NCBI GenBank assembly: GCA_963736115.1
Contig: CAVTNR010000005.1
Coordinates: forward strand, 32,001-96,000
Direction: 5' to 3'
Source: an uncultured bacterium
GTDB taxonomy: Bacteria > Zhuqueibacterota > QNDG01 > DTFT01
Length of the DNA: 64,000 nt
Part shown: positions 2,703-54,037 of the stretch, piece by piece
Layout: every line of letters begins with the position of its first letter
How positions within the stretch are numbered: position 1 is the stretch's first letter
Notes under the pieces: model-generated
Told to the model about the DNA's origin: nothing
Databases searched by the model: none
Seen by the model: the letters and a program-made list of their open reading frames with translations, nothing else
Translations under genes and position numbers: made by a program

Positions 2703-4355
2703 TTATTTCATCATCCCCTTCTCCAGTGCTTCAATGCGCTTTCCCTGCTCTTTCACCACGGCCAGGAGCAGACCGATGCAGTCGCCGGTCGCCATGCTGT
2801 TCCGGTCCTTTCCGGAAAGGATCCCCGGCGTGTCCTCCGCAATGAATCCGACATGGAAAGGCGCATCGGAATTCTCTGCCACTTCGGTCTTGAATCGATA
2901 CTTGACGATCTGAACGTCTGATAGAATAGCCTGAACATCCAGATCATTGGGGGCGATGTCCTGCTTGAGCTGGCGCGACGATCCGTTATGCCACTCGTGA
3001 TCGGTTGCGCTGTAAAATCCTCCGACTCCGTCCGCTTCCATATCGAGCAGGTAGTCGGGTGTCGGGTCGCCGATACCCACATTCCCTGTGCCTTCAATGG
3101 TGACCAGATCACTGAAATCCCAAATGCTAAAACTGATTCGGCCTTTCTTGTCCGTCGCAGAGGGGATGAAATACATGTTTCCCGATTCATTCCTCGAACA
3201 TTACCTGCCGAAGATAATGCCCGAAGTATGGACGCCGTCGGCCGCGTTCGGGGCGATGATATCCAGCATCTCATTCCAATCGGTTGTACTTTCATTCTGA
3301 ACGGTCAACAGCGCATTGGGCGTGGCCGTTCCGACGCCCACTTTACCGTTCTTGAGTACGGTCACGGCATTGGTTTTGGGAGGCCCCTCATCCGCACCGA
3401 TACCGATTTCAAATATAGGATCGCTGGAAACCCAGCTATCGGCCGTACCGCCTCCAACATTACCCTGCCCGATTGCCATGGATGCCCAGGATCCGGCCGT
3501 GGTGCTTCTGCCCATTGCAGTCGAAAAAACACCGCTGGCCGTGGTGCCACACCCGATTGCTGTGGAGGAATAATGGCTGGCAACGGTATTCACACCCATG
3601 GCCGTGGACTCATCACCGCTGGCGATGGTGGAATTGCCCATGGCTGTGGAGGAACGGCCGTTGGCAGCGGTGCTCGAACCCAGGGCCGTGGAATTATCGC
3701 CGCTGGCCGAGGTGAAAGCACCCATGGCCGTGGAAGCCGCGCCGCTCGCGGTGTTGGAACTACCCATCGCCGTGGAAGACGCGCCGCTGGCGGTGTTGGA
3801 ACGACCCATCGCCGTGGAGCCCTCGCCGCTTGCCGTGGTACTCTTTCCCGTGGCCGTGGAATAAGCTCCGACATTGGCTTCATTCCATTGATCTCCACCG
3901 ACATATCCCGCCCTGAAAGCGGCCTTCTTCGGGTACCAGATCAGACGTGTTCCCACACTCGATGTGGTAAGCGTGGTGTCCGTTCCGAACATCCCTTTTG
4001 CGATGATACCTCCACCGTTCAGACTCAGGTTGAACTCCGGAGCGGAGGTGCCGATGCCCACCTTATCCCATGATGTTGTGGTATGGATAGATCCGCCACC
4101 GTCCGTCCACCCGCCGGCGCTTCCTGCGGTGCCCAGCGCGCTGCCGTTCCAGAACAGGGAACCGCTCACGTTGTAGAGTTTGTTGGCCGTGGCCGCGGGC
4201 GTGAAACCGGCCGGCAGGGTGATGGACCCGACCGTTCCTTCATCGTTCACCTCCATGAGAATGTTGGAGTCGCTGTCTTCGACCGTCATCTTCTGGGCAA
4301 ATCCGCTCCCGTACAGGAACAGAAAAAACGCGCAAAAGAACAATCGTCTTTTCAT
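2703..4355 (-). pseudogene. Secreted fibre/adhesin-like protein with YadA/Hep_Hag head repeats and a C-terminal peptidase S74 chaperone domain, interrupted by an in-frame TAA at 3201-3203
   Basis: Signal peptide MKRRLFFCAFFLFLYGSGFAQ, GTRLIWYPKKAAFRAG, repeated STAMG..TTASG, VGIG motifs, SSRQLKQDI...GFIAED coiled-coil end. ORFs 3201..4586 and 2703..3176 share one frame (GGC AGG TAA TGT TCG AGG AAT GAA TCG GGA AAC ATG). Confidence 0.75.
3470..3865 (-). repeat. Tandem ~42-bp (14-aa) coding repeats of YadA-head type
   Basis: About 9-10 units of STAMGxxTTASGxx. Confidence 0.85.
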
Positions 4356-4573: not shown

Positions 4574-4577
4574 GAAG

Positions 4578-4650
4578 CGTCCCCATGGGGATTCGAACCC
4601 CAGTTACAAGATCGAAAATCTTGAGTCCTAGGCCTCTAGACGATGGGGAC
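4578..4650 (-). tRNA. tRNA-Glu(TTC)
   Basis: Reverse complement GTCCCCATCGTCTAGAGGCCTAGGAC-TCAAGA-TT-TTC-GA-TCTTG...GGTTCGAATCCCCATGGGGACG. Confidence 0.95.
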
Positions 4651-4697
4651 GGGTGTTTTCGAGGTTGTCAAAGACGGCTCTGAACGGGCCGGCCGTT

Positions 4698-4774
4698 TGG
4701 GTGAGTAACGGGACTCGAACCCGCGACCTTCAGGGCCACAACCTGACGCTCTAACCAACTGAGCTATACCCACC
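4698..4774 (-). tRNA. tRNA-His(GTG)
   Basis: Reverse complement GGTGGGTATAGCTCAGTTGGTTAGAGCG-TCAGG-TT-GTG-GC-CCTGA...GGTTCGAGTCCCGTTACTCACCCA, with G-1. Confidence 0.95.
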
Positions 4775-10844: not shown

Positions 10845-10919
10845 GACTCCTCCAAAATCACCGCAAAAAAAAACAACCCACCGATCGGTGGGCCGAAACT
10901 CCAGGCGGCGTGGACGCTG

Positions 10920-11005
10920 TACCGGGAGCCGGAATCGAACCGGCACGCCCCTTGCGGGACAAGGGATTTTAAGTCCCTTGCGTCTACCTATTCCGCCATC
11001 CCGGC
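10920..11005 (-). tRNA. tRNA-Leu(TAA)
   Basis: Reverse complement GCCGGGATGGCGGAATAGGTAGACGC-AAGGGA-CT-TAA-AA-TCCCT, long variable arm, GGTTCGATTCC. Confidence 0.95.
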
Positions 11006-11013
11006 CGATTCAT

Positions 11014-11089
11014 TGGAGGCGGCGAGCGGAGTCGAACCGCTGAATAAAGGTTTTGCAGACCTTCGCCTTAGCCACTTGGCTACGCCGCC
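11014..11089 (-). tRNA. tRNA-Cys(GCA)
   Basis: Reverse complement GGCGGCGTAGCCAAGTGGCTAAGGCGAAGGTCT-GCA-AAACCTT...CGCCGCCTCCA. Confidence 0.95.
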
Positions 11090-11094
11090 CTGTT

Positions 11095-11170
11095 TGGAGC
11101 GGGAAACGGGACTTGAACCCGCGACATTCACGTTGGCAACGTGACGCTCTACCAACTGAGCTATTCCCGC
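11095..11170 (-). tRNA. tRNA-Gly(GCC)
   Basis: Reverse complement GCGGGAATAGCTCAGTTGGTAGAGCGTCACGTT-GCC-AACGTGA...TTCCCGCTCCA; classic Gly-Cys-Leu cluster. Confidence 0.95.
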
Positions 11171-43994: not shown

Positions 43995-44974
43995 CCCATG
44001 TGCATCGCCTCCCGGACCTGGGACATGGTGGCCTGCGCCGCCTCGCGCGCGCGCCGGTCGCCGTCCGCCAGAATGTCGTCGACGAGTCCGGGATGGGCCT
44101 CGTAACGCGCCCGTTTCTCCCGGAACGGATCCAGAAAACCGTTGAGCGCCGCGGTCATGCTTTTCTTGTGCGCCACACAGCCCAGCCGGCCGCCGCGGCA
44201 TTCCGTCTCCACCGCATCCGCGTCCTCCGGGTGGAACTTGCGGTGATAGGCCATGACCACGCATCCTTCCGGGTGGCCGGGGTCGCTGACGCGGATCTTC
44301 TGCGGGTCCGTGTAGGCCTGCTTGAGCTTCGACTCGAGATCGGCCGCCGTATCGGAAAGAGTGATGCTATTGTCGAGCGACTTGCTCATCTTCTTGCCTT
44401 CCAGGCCGGGCAGGCGGGCGAACCTCGTCAGCAGGGCCTCGGGCTCGGGGAAAACGGCGCCGTACAGCGCGTTGAAGCGCCGGGCGATCTCGCGCGTGAT
44501 CTCGACATGCGGCACCTGGTCCTCGCCTACGGGCACCGCGTCCGCCTTGTAGATGAGAATGTCGGCGGCCTGGAGCACGGGATAACCGAGATGGCCGAAC
44601 ACCATGGATTCCTCGAGGCCGAGATCGCGCGCCTGCTCCTTCACCGTCGGGTTGCGCTGGAGCCGCGGGACGGTGACGAGCATGCCGAAAATCAGGTTCA
44701 GCTCCGCATGCTCCTTCACATGCGACTGGACGAACAGGGGGCTCCGGACGGGATCGAGACCGGCGGCCAGCCAGTCCATGACGACCTGCCGGCTGTTTTC
44801 GGCGATCCGGGCCGTGTGTTCGAGGTCGGTGGTCAGCATGTGCCAGTCGGCCACCATGTGGAAGCTGTCGTATTCGTTCTGCAGGCGGATCCAGTTTTCA
44901 AGCGCCCCGACGTAATTGCCGAGGTGCAGGCGGCCTGTGGGCCTCATTCCGCTCAGGATGCGTTTTCGGGTCAT
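43991..44974 (-). CDS. trpS: Tryptophan--tRNA ligase
   Basis: SGMRPTGRLHLGNY, YPVLQAADIL, VPVGEDQ, KMSKS. Confidence 0.97.
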   Translation of the reverse strand: MTRKRILSGMRPTGRLHLGNYVGALENWIRLQNEYDSFHMVADWHMLTTDLEHTARIAENSRQVVMDWLAAGLDPVRSPLFVQSHVKEHAELNLIFGMLVTVPRLQRNPTVKEQARDLGLEESMVFGHLGYPVLQAADILIYKADAVPVGEDQVPHVEITREIARRFNALYGAVFPEPEALLTRFARLPGLEGKKMSKSLDNSITLSDTAADLESKLKQAYTDPQKIRVSDPGHPEGCVVMAYHRKFHPEDADAVETECRGGRLGCVAHKKSMTAALNGFLDPFREKRARYEAHPGLVDDILADGDRRAREAAQATMSQVREAMHMG

Positions 44975-44983
44975 GCCTTTTGG

Positions 44984-45487
44984 TCAGCTCATGAAGAGAT
45001 AGGGTTTCCAGCGCTCGTCCGGAATATGCGCCTGCGTCTGGATGAAGAACAGGTATCCCGGCTTCCGCGGCTTGCGAAGCAGCTGCATGCCGGCTTCCTG
45101 CGGCGTCCGGTTGCGCTTGTGGCTGTTGCAGAGGGAGCAGGCGCAGACCAGGTTCTCCCAGGTGTCCTGACCGCCCCGGTCACGCGGGACGATGTGGTCC
45201 ACCGTGAACGGGCTCTTTTCCGTGCCGCAGTACTGACAGCGGTGGTTGTCCCGCTTGATGATGTTGTTCCTCGACAGCAGGATGCGTTTCCGCGGCACGT
45301 GAATCAAGCGCGACAGACGGACGATGCTTGGCAGGATGTAGCATTCGCTCACCGAATGGACTGTCCGGTCCGAGCTTTCGATCACTTCCACCTTTCCCAG
45401 CACCTGGAGCACGACCGCCTTCCGTGCGCTGCAGATGGAAAGCGGCTCGTAGTTCTGGTTGAGAATGAGAACCCTGCCTTCGAGCAT
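44984..45487 (-). CDS. HNH endonuclease
   Basis: VLILNQNYEPL, RDNHRCQYCG, TVDHIVPRDRGG.DTWENLV.AC..CN..K. Confidence 0.92.
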   Translation of the reverse strand: MLEGRVLILNQNYEPLSICSARKAVVLQVLGKVEVIESSDRTVHSVSECYILPSIVRLSRLIHVPRKRILLSRNNIIKRDNHRCQYCGTEKSPFTVDHIVPRDRGGQDTWENLVCACSLCNSHKRNRTPQEAGMQLLRKPRKPGYLFFIQTQAHIPDERWKPYLFMS

Positions 45488-45666
45488 ACAGACATCCGCC
45501 GGTGACGGTCAAACGGATAGAAAACTCCTGTCTTTTTTAGGAACAAGGTCTTAAAGTTAAGAATAATTAGTAAATTTCGCAAGGTATTTTTGCCTTATAC
45601 GTCGGTCGGATCCGTCTATCCGGCTTGAAAAAGTGTTAAATTTCACATTTTTTAGGAAATTATTAC

Positions 45667-45695
45667 TTGACATTATCTATATTATCGATTATATT
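45667..45695 (+). promoter_or_regulatory. Consensus sigma70 promoter for tRNA-Asn, his leader and his operon
   Basis: TTGACA-17 bp-TATATT, 13 nt upstream of the tRNA. Confidence 0.8.
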
Positions 45696-45708
45696 CATTC
45701 TTTCATTT

Positions 45709-45784
45709 TGGGGCGTAGCATAGCTGGCAATGCGCCTGGCTGTTAACCAGGATACCGAAGGTTCGAGTCCTTCCGCCCCAGCCA
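45709..45784 (+). tRNA. tRNA-Asn(GTT)
   Basis: TGGGGCG/CGCCCCA acceptor, GCAT/ATGC D-stem, CCTGG-CT-GTT-AA-CCAGG, GAAGG-TTCGAGT-CCTTC, G73, encoded CCA. Confidence 0.92.
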
Positions 45785-45798
45785 GAGGAGACATGGGA

Positions 45799-45879
45799 AT
45801 GAAACGCAGCATATTCCATCCGCATCACTCGCATCGCCACGAAAGCCACTGCTTTCGCGAGGGGAAGGGTGCGGTTTGA
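45799..45879 (+). CDS. hisL: his operon leader peptide MKRSIFHPHHSHRHESHCFREGKGAV (alternative start 45793)
   Basis: GAGGAG RBS 8 nt upstream; 6 His in 11 codons; followed by a terminator, then hisG. Confidence 0.85.
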   Translation: MKRSIFHPHHSHRHESHCFREGKGAV

Positions 45880-45904
45880 CCGCCGAAGGCTGATCACAGC
45901 TTCA

Positions 45905-45937
45905 GACGCCCTCCCGTTCCGGTGGGCGTTTTTTATT
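45905..45937 (+). terminator. his attenuator terminator
   Basis: ACGCCC(T)CC-loop-GG(T)GGGCGT-TTTTTATT; the 5' arm can alternatively pair with GGAAGGGTGCGGTTTGA at the leader end. Confidence 0.8.
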
Positions 45938-46004
45938 GGGTCAATTTTCATTATTCGAATATTTTTCGTATATTACATGACTAATCGGAAAGGATGAACC
46001 GGGC

Positions 46005-46883
46005 ATGTCCAAACGTGTTCTGAAAATCGGCCTCCCCAAGGGAAGTCTGCAGGAAGCCACATTCAAGTATTTCGCGAACGCGGGATATCATTTCTCGACC
46101 AACACGCGTTCCTATTTCTCGTCCGTGGACGACGAGGAACTGCAGGGCATTCTGCTTCGCGCCCAGGAGATCGCCACTTATGTCCAGGACGGCGTATTCG
46201 ATATCGGCCTGACGGGAAAAGACTGGGTGATGGAAACGGGCGCGGACGTGGTTGAAGTCGTGGATCTGCTGTACTCGCGACAGAGCCTGCGGCCCATCCG
46301 CTGGGTGCTTGCCGTTCCCAACGACTCCCCCATCCGGACCGTGCGGGATCTGGAGGGCAAGCGTATCGCCACCGAGGTCGTGCATTTGACCCGGCAGTAC
46401 CTGCGGGAGAAGGGCGTGCACGCCGAAGTGGAGTTCTCCTGGGGCGCAACGGAAGTGAAAGCGCCGCTCCTCGTGGACGCCATCGTCGAGGCGACCGAGA
46501 CGGGCGGCTCCCTCAGGGCCAACGGCCTGCGGATCGTGGACGAACTGGTCGTCTCCACCACGCGGCTGATCGCCAACAAGGAAAGCTGGAAGGACCCCTG
46601 GAAACGGGAGAAAACGGAAAACCTCGTCACCCTGCTCCAGGGCGCCATCGCGGCCGAACTCAAGGTCGGCCTCAAGATGAACGTGGAGACCGACCGGCTG
46701 GACGACCTGGTGAAGATGCTTCCCGCCATGAAGAATCCCACCATCTCCCACCTGTACGACCCGAAATGGGTGGCGGTTGAGATCGTCGTGGACGAAGCCA
46801 CCGTGCGCGAACTGATCCCCCGGCTCCGGCGGGCAGGCGCCCGGGACATCATTGAGTATCCCCTGAACAAGGTCATTCCCTGA
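46005..46883 (+). CDS. hisG: ATP phosphoribosyltransferase (long form)
   Basis: [44 protein letters not shown]-terminal regulatory domain. Confidence 0.96.
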
Positions 46884-46896
46884 GCGGAGAAGCGAA

Positions 46897-48183
46897 ATGA
46901 TCGAGATCTACGAAGGCGACCGCATTGACGGGTTCCTGAAACGGCTTGAAACCCGTCGTGAAGAGACCTCCCGCGAAGTCCGGAACGCGGTGCAGGACAT
47001 CATCACCGACGTCCGAAAGCACGGCGACGAGGCCCTTCTGCGGTACACGCGGGAATTCGACAAGGTGGAGATTCCGGAAAGCGCGATCCGCGTTCCCGAG
47101 CGGGATATCCGCGCGGCCATGGACGCCGCGGACCCGGCTTTCCTCGAAGTGCTCCGGCGTTCCGCGGAGAACATCCGCCGTTTCCACAGCAAGGGAGCCC
47201 GCCGGTCCTGGATCGAATGGGAATCGGACGGCGTGATGCTGGGACAGCGCGTGCGACCCCTGGACCGGGTGGGCGCGTACGTACCGGGCGGAAGGGCCGC
47301 CTATGCCTCGTCCCTGCTCATGGCCGTGGTGCCCGCCCAGGTCGCCGGCGTGCGGGAAATCGCCGTGGTGTCGCCGCCCGGTTCCGAAGGCCATCCGCAT
47401 CCTTCGATCCTCGCGGCGGCCGGCGTGCTGGGCCTCACGGAATTCTATTGCATCGGCGGCGCCCAGGCCGTGGCCGCGCTCGCGGTCGGCACCGAGACCG
47501 TGCGCCGCGTGGATAAGATCGTGGGCCCGGGCAACCTCTACGTCGCCGAGGCGAAGCGCCAGGTGTTTGGAACGGTCGCGATCGACATGGTCGCCGGCCC
47601 GAGCGAAGTTGTGATTCTGGCCGACGGTACGGCTGATCCGGCTTTCATTGCCGCGGACCTTCTGGCCCAGGCGGAGCACGATCCGACCGCGTCCTCGGTG
47701 TGCGTCACGCCGGACGCCGACCTCGCCGAAGGCGTCCGGAAGGCCGTGAAGGAGCAGGCTGAACCCCTACAACGGAAACCGATCGTGACGGCCTCGCTCC
47801 GTGTCTGGGGCGGCATCCTCCGCGTGGCGTCCATGGAAAAGGCCGTGGACATGGTCAACCGGCTCGCGCCCGAACATCTGGGCATACACGCGAAGAACGC
47901 CTGGGAACTCGTGGAATCCGTCCGACACGCCGGCGCGATCTTCCTCGGAGACTGGTCCCCGGAGACCGTGGGCGACTACTGGGCGGGTCCGAACCACATC
48001 CTGCCGACCAACACGACCGCCCGGTTCTCCTCCCCCCTGGGAACCGACGACTTTCTGAAGACGAGCAGCCTGATTTCCTGGAGCCGGCGCGCGCTCCAGC
48101 GTGATGCGGAATCGATCATGAAATTCGCAGCCATGGAGGGCCTGGACGCCCATGTCAACGCCGTCCGAAAACGCATCGAATGA
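46897..48183 (+). CDS. hisD: Histidinol dehydrogenase
   Basis: [51 protein letters not shown]. Confidence 0.97.
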
Positions 48184-50679: not shown

Positions 50680-51429
50680 ATGCAGATCATACCCGCCATC
50701 GACCTGCTGGGCGGCCGGGTTGTCCGCCTGACGCAGGGACGCGAGGAATCGGCCGTGGTGTATTCGGACCGGCCGGAGGAAACGGCGGTCGCCCTGGAAT
50801 CCGCGGGAGCGGACTGGATCCACGTCGTGGACCTGGACGGCGCCTTCGGCCGGCCGGGCGTGAACGCCGCGGCCGTGGAGCGGATCGCCTCTTCGGTGCG
50901 GGCCTCCGTGGAGCTCGGAGGCGGCATCCGGGATCGGGATCGGATCCGGTTCTGGCTCGAACGGGGCGTCGACCGCGTGGTGCTGGGCTCCGCGGCGGTT
51001 CGCGATCCGGGCCTGGTCACGGAAGCCGTCGCGGCACACGGGCCTGACGCCGTCGTCGCAGGCATCGACGTACGGAACGGCCGGGTCTCGGTGGCCGGAT
51101 GGACCGAGGACGGCGGCCGGGATGCCCTGGATTTTGCGCGAGAGATGGAATCCTCCGGCGTGAAGCTCGCCGTGGTCACGGAAATATCAGCGGACGGCAT
51201 GCTGGCCGGAACCGACGCGCGTTCCGCGGCCCGCATCGCGGAGGGGACTGGCCTGTCGGTCATCGTATCCGGCGGCGTGGGACGGATGGAGGACATTGAA
51301 ACCGTCGACCGCCTGCGGCTCCCCGGGATCCGGGGCGTCATCGTCGGCAAGGCCTATTACGAAGGTCGGATCGACCTGGCGGAGGCGATTCGGCGGTTCG
51401 GACCGCCGCAACCCGGACGGACGTCATGA
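50680..51429 (+). CDS. hisA: ProFAR isomerase
   Basis: IIPAIDL.GG.VVRL.QG, HVVDLDGA, GGGIR, DGML.G, SGGV. Confidence 0.95.
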   Translation: MQIIPAIDLLGGRVVRLTQGREESAVVYSDRPEETAVALESAGADWIHVVDLDGAFGRPGVNAAAVERIASSVRASVELGGGIRDRDRIRFWLERGVDRVVLGSAAVRDPGLVTEAVAAHGPDAVVAGIDVRNGRVSVAGWTEDGGRDALDFAREMESSGVKLAVVTEISADGMLAGTDARSAARIAEGTGLSVIVSGGVGRMEDIETVDRLRLPGIRGVIVGKAYYEGRIDLAEAIRRFGPPQPGRTS

Positions 51430-52895
51430 AAAAACTGCTGGTGGTGGACGACGAAGTTCTGATCGCCGCCGAGCTCAAGGATCATCTCGAGCGGATGCAT
51501 TTCAACGTGGCCGGAACCGCCCACTCCGGAGAGGAAGCCGTGGAGCTGGCCGGCCGACTCAAGCCCGACCTTGTCATTCTCGACATCATGCTCGGGGAAG
51601 GCCGCATGGACGGCATCGAGGCGGCGGAAATCATCCGGGACCGGTTCGACATTTCCGTGGTCTTCATCACGGCCTACGGGAACGAGCAGATCATCGACCG
51701 GGCAAAGACCGTCGACCCGCTCGGGTTCATCTCCAAACCGTTCTTCGAGGACGAGCTCAAGGCCTGCGTGGAGCTGGCCCTGTACAAGGTCGACCGCGAC
51801 CGGACGCTGCGGGACTCGGAGGAGCGGTACCGTTCGGTCGTGGTTTCGGCGGTCGAGGCGATCATCATCGCCGACATCCGCATGCGGATCGTTTTCTGGA
51901 ACCGGGCCGCGTCCGGCATGTTCGGCCACACCGCCGAGGAAATCGAGCGGAGGCCCGTCCTGGATCTGATCTCGGAGCCCCAGCGGAAAGCCCTGGCCGT
52001 TGAAATGGACCGGATGGTGCTGACCGAGGAGAAGGACACGTCCGGTCGGACGGCCGAGACCGTCGGACTCCGCAAGGACGGAAGCGAATTCCCCATGGAG
52101 TTTTCCCTCTCCTCCTGGGTGGTCCGGGACGACATTTTCTTCACGATCAACGCCCGCGACATCACCGACCGCAAGAAGGTCGAACAGATGAAGACGGACT
52201 TCGTATCGCTGGTGTCGCATCAGCTCAAAACACCGGTGGCAGGCGTGCTCGGATGCATCGACAATCTGCTGTCCGGTATCGCGGGGCCGATCACGCCGGA
52301 GCAGCGTGAATACCTGCTCATGATGCGCGATATCAGCCTCCGCAACTACCGGAACATCAACGACCTGCTCAACGTGTCTCGCATCGAGCGGGGCGTGGTC
52401 GAAGCCAATGTCAAGCGGTGGAATCTCAAACGCATTCTGGCCCAGGTGCTGCGCGACAACCGGTCCGCGTTCCGCGAGAAGGGGCTTTGCCTGAAAATCG
52501 AAGGCGGCGGCCGGCGGTACGAGGCAATGGCCGACCGCGACAAGCTGTACGAGGCGTTCAGCAATATTCTCCACAATGCCCTGAAATTCACGGAAAAGGG
52601 CGGCATCACCGTCAACCTGCGGCCGGAGAACGGCCGGTGCCGGATCGAATTCGCGGACACCGGTCCCGGCATTCCGGCCGAACTGCAGAAACGCCTCTTC
52701 AAGCGGAACATGGTCCTGCACGGCGCGCCGGATCCGAAGCGCGGCAGCGGATTGGGGCTATTCATTGCGAAGGAATTCATGACGTTGCAGGGAGGGGATC
52801 TGAGCGCGACCTCCTCGCCCGAGCGGGGCAGCTGCTTCCGGTTCACCATACCGCTCGCGGAGGACCAACGAACGGAGACAACCGATGGAAGGTAA
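51426..52895 (+). CDS. Hybrid sensor histidine kinase (REC-PAS-HisKA-HATPase), cytoplasmic
   Basis: LVVDDE..DLVILDI REC; WNRAA..MFG..RKDGSEFP PAS; SHQLKTP H-box; NALKFT, DTGPGI, GSGLGL. Confidence 0.93.
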   Translation: MKKLLVVDDEVLIAAELKDHLERMHFNVAGTAHSGEEAVELAGRLKPDLVILDIMLGEGRMDGIEAAEIIRDRFDISVVFITAYGNEQIIDRAKTVDPLGFISKPFFEDELKACVELALYKVDRDRTLRDSEERYRSVVVSAVEAIIIADIRMRIVFWNRAASGMFGHTAEEIERRPVLDLISEPQRKALAVEMDRMVLTEEKDTSGRTAETVGLRKDGSEFPMEFSLSSWVVRDDIFFTINARDITDRKKVEQMKTDFVSLVSHQLKTPVAGVLGCIDNLLSGIAGPITPEQREYLLMMRDISLRNYRNINDLLNVSRIERGVVEANVKRWNLKRILAQVLRDNRSAFREKGLCLKIEGGGRRYEAMADRDKLYEAFSNILHNALKFTEKGGITVNLRPENGRCRIEFADTGPGIPAELQKRLFKRNMVLHGAPDPKRGSGLGLFIAKEFMTLQGGDLSATSSPERGSCFRFTIPLAEDQRTETTDGR

Positions 52896-53281: not shown

Positions 53282-54037
53282 ATGCTGGCCAAACGCATTA
53301 TCCCCTGCCTCGATGTGAAGGACGGCCGCGTCGTGAAGGGCGTCCGTTTCCTCGACCTGACGGACGCAGGCGACCCCGTGGAGCAGGCGCGTTTTTACGA
53401 CCGGGAAGGCGCGGACGAGATCGTATTCCTCGACATCACCGCCTCGGCCGAAAAGCGGGACATTCTGCTCGACGTGGTCCGCCGCACGGCCGAAGTCGTG
53501 TTTACGCCCCTCACGGTGGGCGGCGGCGTCCGGACCGAGGAGGATGCCCGGGTTCTGCTCGAGGGGGGGGCCGATAAGGTCAGCATCAACACCGCGGCCG
53601 TCCGGGACCCGGACCTGATCACCCGCTGCGCGTCCCGTTTCGGCAGTCAGGCGGTCGTGGTCGCCGTCGACGCTAAGCGCCGGGACGGCGCCTGGAAGGT
53701 TTTCGTCCGGGGCGGCCGCGACGAGACGGCCCTGGACGCCGTGGCATGGGCGGTCGAAGCCGAACGGCTGGGCGCGGGCGAAATCCTGCTGACCAGCATG
53801 GACCGGGACGGAACACGCGACGGCTACGACCTCGGGCTCACACGGGCCGTGTCGCGCGCCGTGGGCGTGCCGGTCATCGCCTCCGGCGGGTGCGGATCTC
53901 TCGAGCACATCCGCCTGGCGTTCAGCGAGGGCGAGGCGGACGCGGCCCTCGCCGCCTCGATCTTTCATTTCCGTGAAAAATCCATTCTCGAATGCAAACG
54001 CTATCTGAAGGAGAAAAACATCCATGTCCGATGCTGA
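53282..54037 (+). CDS. hisF: Imidazole glycerol phosphate synthase, cyclase subunit
   Basis: [50 protein letters not shown]. Confidence 0.97.

Follow-up and report, generated by a model that had tools for sequence, protein, structure and literature searches.

In the stretch of DNA that was analysed (64,000 nt from an uncultured bacterium, referred to as the window), the his operon is probably controlled by a ribosome-mediated leader-peptide attenuator, the transcript of which would be headed by a functional tRNA-Asn gene. The value of the observation lies in a combination: a dense cluster of His codons in a short reading frame, a well-spaced ribosome-binding site and a terminator, located directly 5′ of hisG. 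The interpretation offered in a preliminary description of the same DNA was partly supported. From this arrangement, we infer co-transcription of the tRNA and the leader, a response to histidine and maturation of the tRNA from the leader precursor.

Layout of the tRNA-Asn, leader and his genes

The following features were assigned, with positions counted from the first nucleotide of the window.

45667..45695, + strand: sigma-70-type promoter-like site, TTGACA-17-TATATT, 11/12 matches
45709..45784, + strand: tRNA-Asn, anticodon GUU; ARAGORN Asn(gtt); Rfam RF00005, 69.4 bits (gathering score 29)
45785..45790, + strand: Shine-Dalgarno sequence GAGGAG of the leader ORF, read from the sequence; begins one base past the CCA of the tRNA
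45799..45879, + strand: leader ORF of 26 codons, MKRSIFHPHHSHRHESHCFREGKGAV; ATG at 45799, stop codon TGA at 45877-45879
45817..45849, + strand: putative regulatory His-codon cluster, 6 His in 11 codons (at 45817, 45823, 45826, 45832, 45838 and 45847)
45904..45937, + strand: predicted intrinsic terminator (3:4), consisting of a hairpin with a G+C-rich stem (45904-45931) and a run of six U; -15.4 kcal/mol
45945..45974, + strand: weaker promoter-like site, TTTTCA-18-TATATT, 9/12 matches; between the terminator and hisG
46005..46883, + strand: hisG, long-form ATP phosphoribosyltransferase, first gene of the operon; PF01634 and PF08029
46897..51429, + strand: hisD, hisC, hisB, hisH and hisA, named from their Pfam domains (PF00815, PF00155, PF00475, PF00117 and PF00977)
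53282..54037: second His_biosynth gene (Pfam), presumably hisF, beyond an inserted sensor-kinase gene

All elements listed in the preliminary description (the promoter, tRNA-Asn, GAGGAG, the 26-aa ORF with 6 His in 11 codons, the hairpin with its U-run, and hisG) were confirmed at these positions. Transcription from the first site is expected to start at approximately 45702, 6-7 nt 5′ of the tRNA, and the region 45488-45708 is A+T-rich, with a G+C content as low as 0.33. The tRNA-Asn covers positions 1-71 of the 71 positions of the RF00005 model, i.e. its full length, and has a U1-A72 pair, discriminator G73 and an encoded CCA at 45782-45784. The window's five other tRNAs score 57-73 bits, a range that includes the score of the tRNA-Asn.

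The spacing between GAGGAG and the ATG at 45799 is 8 nt. An alternative in-frame ATG at 45793, yielding a peptide of 28 aa, is the less likely start codon since it lies only 2 nt past the Shine-Dalgarno sequence. In the list of open reading frames, the leader appears as the tail of a 49-aa ORF (45730-45876) that begins within the tRNA. The end of the leader ORF and hisG are 125 nt apart, and an A+T-rich spacer of 68 nt precedes hisG. In the six reading frames of the 64 kb, a segment of 11 codons containing 6 His was found at 45817 alone, while 5 His were found at three other places.

The encoded HisG protein counts 292 aa. Its metagenome homologues range from 98% to ~68% identity, and those carrying a name are labelled 'bacterium' or candidate division KSB1. 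Within the his cluster, a gene for a hybrid response-regulator/PAS/histidine-kinase protein (51426-52895, + strand) shares its first 4 nt with the end of hisA. On the other side of the locus, an HNH endonuclease gene (44984-45487, - strand; PF14279/PF01844) is divergent from the tRNA-Asn promoter and adjoins trpS.

As the ribosome-binding site begins one base past the tRNA and neither a promoter-like site nor a terminator was found between the tRNA-Asn and the leader, their presence on one transcript is the economical reading of the sequence. The hairpin at 45904-45937 is the first terminator downstream of the tRNA-Asn gene, so that the earlier claim that the his terminator doubles as the tRNA terminator is supported in silico. 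The preliminary description had named a separate start between the tRNA and hisG as evidence against its reading. On the + strand, no promoter-like site was found between 45696 and 45944 at the scan threshold; the 9/12 site was found further on, at 45945-45974. The geometry joins the leader to the tRNA, and the 45945-45974 site could still drive hisG separately, in which case the tRNA and the his genes would not depend on a single promoter. This site may act as a bypass promoter, or the match may have arisen by chance in the A+T-rich spacer. Motifs of similar type (TTGACA/TTGAT...TAAATT) were read by eye 5′ of the other two clusters of tRNAs in the window.

Alternatively, the locus could consist of two independent units, namely a solitary tRNA-Asn with its own terminator and a hisG transcribed from the 45945-45974 promoter, with the His-rich ORF having no regulatory role. 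Such an organization would make use of the 9/12 site between the terminator and hisG and would resemble the window's other tRNA clusters, which end in terminators of their own (in the tRNA-His/tRNA-Glu cluster, directly past the last tRNA). The three other places with 5 His in 11 codons, reached by chance, also suit it. However, 9/12 promoter matches are common in an A+T-rich spacer (in shuffled sequences, they occurred at a mean of 1.2 per kb over both strands), and the ORF that holds the His run lies directly 5′ of hisG and has a strong, ideally spaced Shine-Dalgarno sequence. Two independent units are therefore considered unlikely, and the attenuator headed by the tRNA is retained as the preferred reading.

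Predicted folds of the leader transcript

In addition to the terminator, two alternative structures were predicted.

45820..45874, + strand: predicted 1:2 hairpin, with outer stem CCGCAUC/GGUGCGG and inner stem GAAAGC/GCUUUC; -27.5 kcal/mol for 45817-45880
45860..45917, + strand: predicted 2:3 antiterminator, formed between 45862-45871 and the terminator's 5′ arm (45907-45915); -25.8 kcal/mol

The unconstrained fold of 45785-45940 consisted of a start-codon hairpin (45793-45819), the 1:2 hairpin (45820-45874) and the terminator. The 1:2 hairpin takes in five of the six His codons (45823-45847). The predicted antiterminator encloses two small hairpins, and the stop codon of the leader is located just 3′ of region 2. 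When the 236-nt transcript was folded from its presumed start, the tRNA cloverleaf was retained beside the leader hairpins. Of the pairings proposed in the preliminary description, CCGCATC with GGTGCGG (1:2) was present in the predicted minimum-energy fold and ACGCCC with GGGCGT (3:4) in the predicted folds. For 2:3, an antiterminator was indeed predicted, but the pairing of TTTGA with TCAGA put forward for it was not used, its place being taken by 45862-45871 and 45907-45915.

The start-codon hairpin (45793-45819, + strand) is a predicted 9-bp structure that pairs both candidate start codons with the region of the first His codon. According to this model, the hairpin could restrict translation of the leader to co-transcriptional initiation.

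A ribosome was imitated by a 30-nt mask in minimum-energy folds, and an ensemble calculation was carried out with 45808-45852 masked. With the A site placed at any of His codons 1-5, the terminator was lost from the minimum-energy fold and 45862-45871 paired with 45907-45915; an A site positioned on His codon 6 (45847) left the terminator in place. In the ensemble, the pair probability of the terminator was ~1.0 without a mask or with the ribosome at the stop codon. Masking 45808-45852 lowered it to ≤0.04, and the antiterminator pairs reached ~0.9. These predicted masked folds follow the logic of classical attenuation. Folding with and without masked His codons, as suggested in the preliminary description, thus gave the antiterminator when masked and the terminator when unmasked, against a chance level of ~14% of shuffles.

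This chance level was obtained from dinucleotide shuffles of 45853-45900, 280 of 2000 (~14%) of which paired with the 5′ arm of the terminator equally well or better. Similarly, 14.7% of 300 shuffles abolished the terminator as completely upon stall masking, and the energy of the 1:2 duplex was equalled in 864 of 2000 shuffles. The fold z-scores were unremarkable (-1.58 for 45785-45940 and -1.27 for the 236-nt transcript). When regions 2, 3 and 4 were considered alone at equilibrium, the terminator form was slightly favoured (-28.1 vs -25.8 kcal/mol). The fold of the stalled state was partly stabilized by pairing of 45793-45800 with region 4, and such pairs may not form in the cell. Because shuffled sequences often do as well, the structure is to be taken as compatible with attenuation and not as proof of it from a single sequence. 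Pairings that are no better than those of shuffles also speak for two independent units.

Based on these models, regulation would proceed as follows. Transcription would start from the promoter at 45667-45695 and yield pre-tRNA-Asn, to which the ribosome-binding site and the His-rich leader of 26 codons are joined with no spacer. With plentiful His-tRNA, the ribosome would reach the stop codon at 45877 and cover region 2, allowing the terminator at 45904-45937 to form. The termination product, a ~235-nt RNA comprising pre-tRNA and leader, would be matured to tRNA-Asn. With scarce His-tRNA, the ribosome would stall at 45817-45849, and the freed region 2 would pair with the 5′ arm of the terminator; the antiterminated RNA polymerase would then proceed into hisGDCBHA. 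If the leader were not translated at all, the 1:2 and 3:4 hairpins would form, resulting in termination.

A real leader could also act otherwise than through an intrinsic terminator, i.e. by Rho-dependent polarity, by translational coupling or by an effect on mRNA stability. The statistical weakness of the antiterminator and the 68 nt of A+T-rich spacer in front of hisG are in line with such action. It is nevertheless rated quite improbable, given a good terminator hairpin with six U placed exactly past the leader and masked folds that switch as expected for attenuation by an intrinsic terminator.

Related junctions and the 3′ end of the tRNA

Relatives of the locus were detected by means of an 82-aa minus-strand ORF (45703-45951), which is antisense to the tRNA, the leader and the terminator. 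A search with this ORF gave three proteins out of three candidates, and the clusters to which they belong added two members, resulting in five related proteins (P0121-P0125) in three clusters. As the leader parts differ between these clusters, they were taken to represent different organisms. This route favours contexts without antisense stop codons, so that ascertainment is biased.

In all five proteins, the 24-residue antisense translation of the tRNA-Asn was present, with a difference at one residue in P0123. A run of M and V was found a few residues N-terminal of this part, which corresponds to the sense strand downstream of the tRNA. Read codon by codon on the opposite strand, CAT yields M and NAC yields V. 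Reverse back-translation of each of the five gave three unambiguous CAT codons, between which two or three NAC codons are interspersed. In the relatives, a potential start codon (ATG or GTG) is located 18-21 nt past the discriminator, compared with 18 nt in the window, and further downstream G+C-rich codons are followed by T-rich codons. The junction of tRNA-Asn and a run of His codons thus appears to recur in relatives, where it is known from antisense protein translations of the junction alone. Conservation of the His codons, on which the preliminary description had made its reading depend, is in this way implied by five of five antisense ORFs, at the level of protein translations. His-codon runs at the same distance past tRNA-Asn in three diverged clusters further argue against two independent units.

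The 82-aa antisense ORF itself was rejected as a real gene: its matches are fully identical to it only across the 24 residues that face the tRNA, with low identity in the remainder. In the search listing, no precomputed Pfam domain was given for the three antisense-ORF matches. In metagenome gene calls, P0121-P0125 carry the label hypothetical protein; they are almost certainly spurious, since they are conserved only opposite the tRNA.

With 6 His and 1 Cys among its 26 residues, the short ORF might instead encode a His/Cys-rich micropeptide with a function of its own, such as metal binding, and not a sensor of His-tRNA. As far as the antisense translations show, however, no part of the peptide beyond its His run is conserved in the relatives, the 49-aa sense frame (45730-45876) had no match in either of two protein collections, and both the position of the ORF and the terminator suit a leader. 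A micropeptide is accordingly judged very improbable, and the ORF is further treated as the leader of an attenuator.

The preliminary description had also proposed that 3′ processing of the tRNA competes with translation of the leader, giving a second regulatory input. Precursors lacking CCA are cut by RNase Z, which avoids precursors that bear CCA; in the latter, a downstream cut is followed by exonuclease trimming. CCA is encoded after G73 in the window and is excluded at positions 74-76 in five of five related proteins (three clusters). Given these pathways, the junction would be processed by different 3′-end routes in the window and in its relatives. As judged from these sequences, the difference argues against a fine balance, kept among relatives, in which processing would compete with binding of the ribosome. 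The proposed second input is speculative. Within the window itself, the tRNAs at 4577-4773 and 10919-11170 (both - strand) and at 45709-45784 (+ strand) were compared by eye: CCA is encoded in those for Gly, Cys and Asn and absent from those for Leu, His and Glu. The organism presumably needs both maturation routes.

A combined model would keep the attenuator and let cleavage at the 3′ end of the tRNA compete with ribosome loading on the adjacent Shine-Dalgarno sequence, with tRNA maturation as a second input. In its favour, the Shine-Dalgarno sequence begins one base past CCA, the tight spacing between tRNA and start codon (18-21 nt) is kept in the relatives and, according to passages of PMC6511841, release of the tRNA from E. 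coli metY-nusA-infB transcripts initiates decay of the downstream mRNA. Against it, five of five related proteins imply that CCA is not encoded, so the route of processing at the junction is not conserved; moreover, attenuation would be decided within a few seconds (~140 nt transcribed), probably before 3′ processing. We regard the combined model as improbable. Doubtful as well is the broader proposal that the tRNA is a selected part of the regulator in a lineage-wide class of 'tRNA-headed attenuators', in which the folded or maturing tRNA-Asn, bordering the ribosome-binding site on its 5′ side, would determine how ribosomes load and how long the read-through his mRNA lasts. If this were true, histidine biosynthesis would be tied to the capacity for tRNA transcription and maturation as well as to charging of His-tRNA.

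Comparison with distant loci and known systems

Distant hisG loci were collected by a profile search of contigs using an alignment of 26 HisG sequences. The 80 loci listed were at ≤65% identity and came from many phyla. Upstream ORFs were counted as His-rich leaders if they were short, lay on the strand of the his genes and had 4 or more His within 9 codons. Such an ORF was found before hisG or hisI-hisG in 7 of the 80 distant loci listed, six of them in Acidobacteriota MAGs (L036, L054, L069, L072, L074 and L079; at ~3320-3545 in each). In L074, a promoter, leader and terminator followed by hisI-hisG were read by eye. The seventh, L064, from an unclassified bacterium, has a promoter, leader (2901-3002), terminator and hisG within 250 nt, also read by eye. 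No tRNA was found before a leader in any of the 80 loci listed. The arrangement of tRNA, His leader and hisG, for which the preliminary description had suggested a search of related genomes, was thus seen as a tRNA/His-run junction in the three related clusters and in none of the distant loci listed. In one locus labelled as archaeal (L068; 3467-3538, 3620-3991 and 4001-4882), a tRNA-His(GTG) lies ~80 nt 5′ of hisI-hisG, with no leader ORF.

The Rfam His_leader model (RF00514) gave no match in 44500-47000 at E up to 10 and none at the gathering score in the whole window. Likewise, no match to the covariance model of the T-box leader, another known means of regulating his genes, was obtained in 44500-47000 or in the whole window. 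In the seven leader-bearing distant loci, there was no match to a relevant Rfam family, including His_leader and T-box, at E up to 1. The element of the window is thus a His leader-peptide attenuator by its anatomy and predicted behaviour, but its sequence places it outside the Rfam His_leader family.

Leader-peptide attenuation is textbook knowledge, mostly from Proteobacteria, to which the present case adds an uncultured lineage. A broader comparative study is reportedly that of Vitreschak and colleagues (2004). In passages of PMC2965389, leader peptides are described as shown in Proteobacteria and Actinobacteria, with a His leader at hisZ/hisS paralogues of bacilli added, and in part of PMC4833913 leaders of hisG and hisZ are listed for gamma-proteobacteria and some Firmicutes. 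The leaders of the window, the Acidobacteriota loci and L064, none of which match Rfam, suggest that the mechanism is far wider than RNA-family libraries record. Judging from these sequences, His-leader attenuation seems widespread outside Proteobacteria.

Through the fusion to a tRNA, an amino-acid operon and a housekeeping tRNA would share one promoter and one terminator. Should the two indeed be co-transcribed, a tRNA precursor would be what the his promoter yields by default, and each read-through his mRNA would carry a 5′-terminal tRNA. The locus would then offer a natural test bed for the interplay of tRNA processing, mRNA stability and ribosome loading. In the open-access papers searched, no description of an attenuator or leader peptide fused with a tRNA gene was found.

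Compared with the enterobacterial hisL leader (RF00514), the window has in common a short His-rich ORF, an intrinsic terminator directly before hisG, predicted alternative 1:2, 2:3 and 3:4 pairings, and a stop codon beside region 2. In contrast to hisL, which has a run of seven consecutive His codons, those of the window are interrupted (6 of 11). Moreover, its transcript would open with a tRNA gene, whereas that of hisL opens with a short 5′ leader, and the host is an uncultured bacterium with a HisG closest to entries named 'bacterium' or candidate division KSB1. The seven distant His leaders differ in that none has a tRNA gene and, in unaligned sequences, none has evident similarity to the leader of the window.

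Mixed operons starting with tRNA genes are known, thrU-tyrU-glyT-thrT-tufB being one of them. The nearest precedent for a tRNA heading an attenuated operon is metY-nusA-infB of E. coli. According to passages of PMC6511841, its primary transcripts consist of a pre-tRNA linked to mRNA, with two terminators (t1 and t2) past the tRNA, and decay of the downstream mRNA sets in once the tRNA is excised (cited there by title: Regnier and Grunberg-Manago 1989). As far as these passages go, metY-nusA-infB starts with a tRNA, runs into protein genes and has terminators in between, as would the unit proposed for the window. In metY-nusA-infB, however, read-through is under the control of NusA or other means, without a translated leader that senses an amino acid; it also has an internal promoter, P2, and no ribosome-binding site abutting its tRNA. 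What is new in the window is thus the combination of the predicted working of a classical his attenuator with a build like that of metY-nusA-infB, both kinds being already known.
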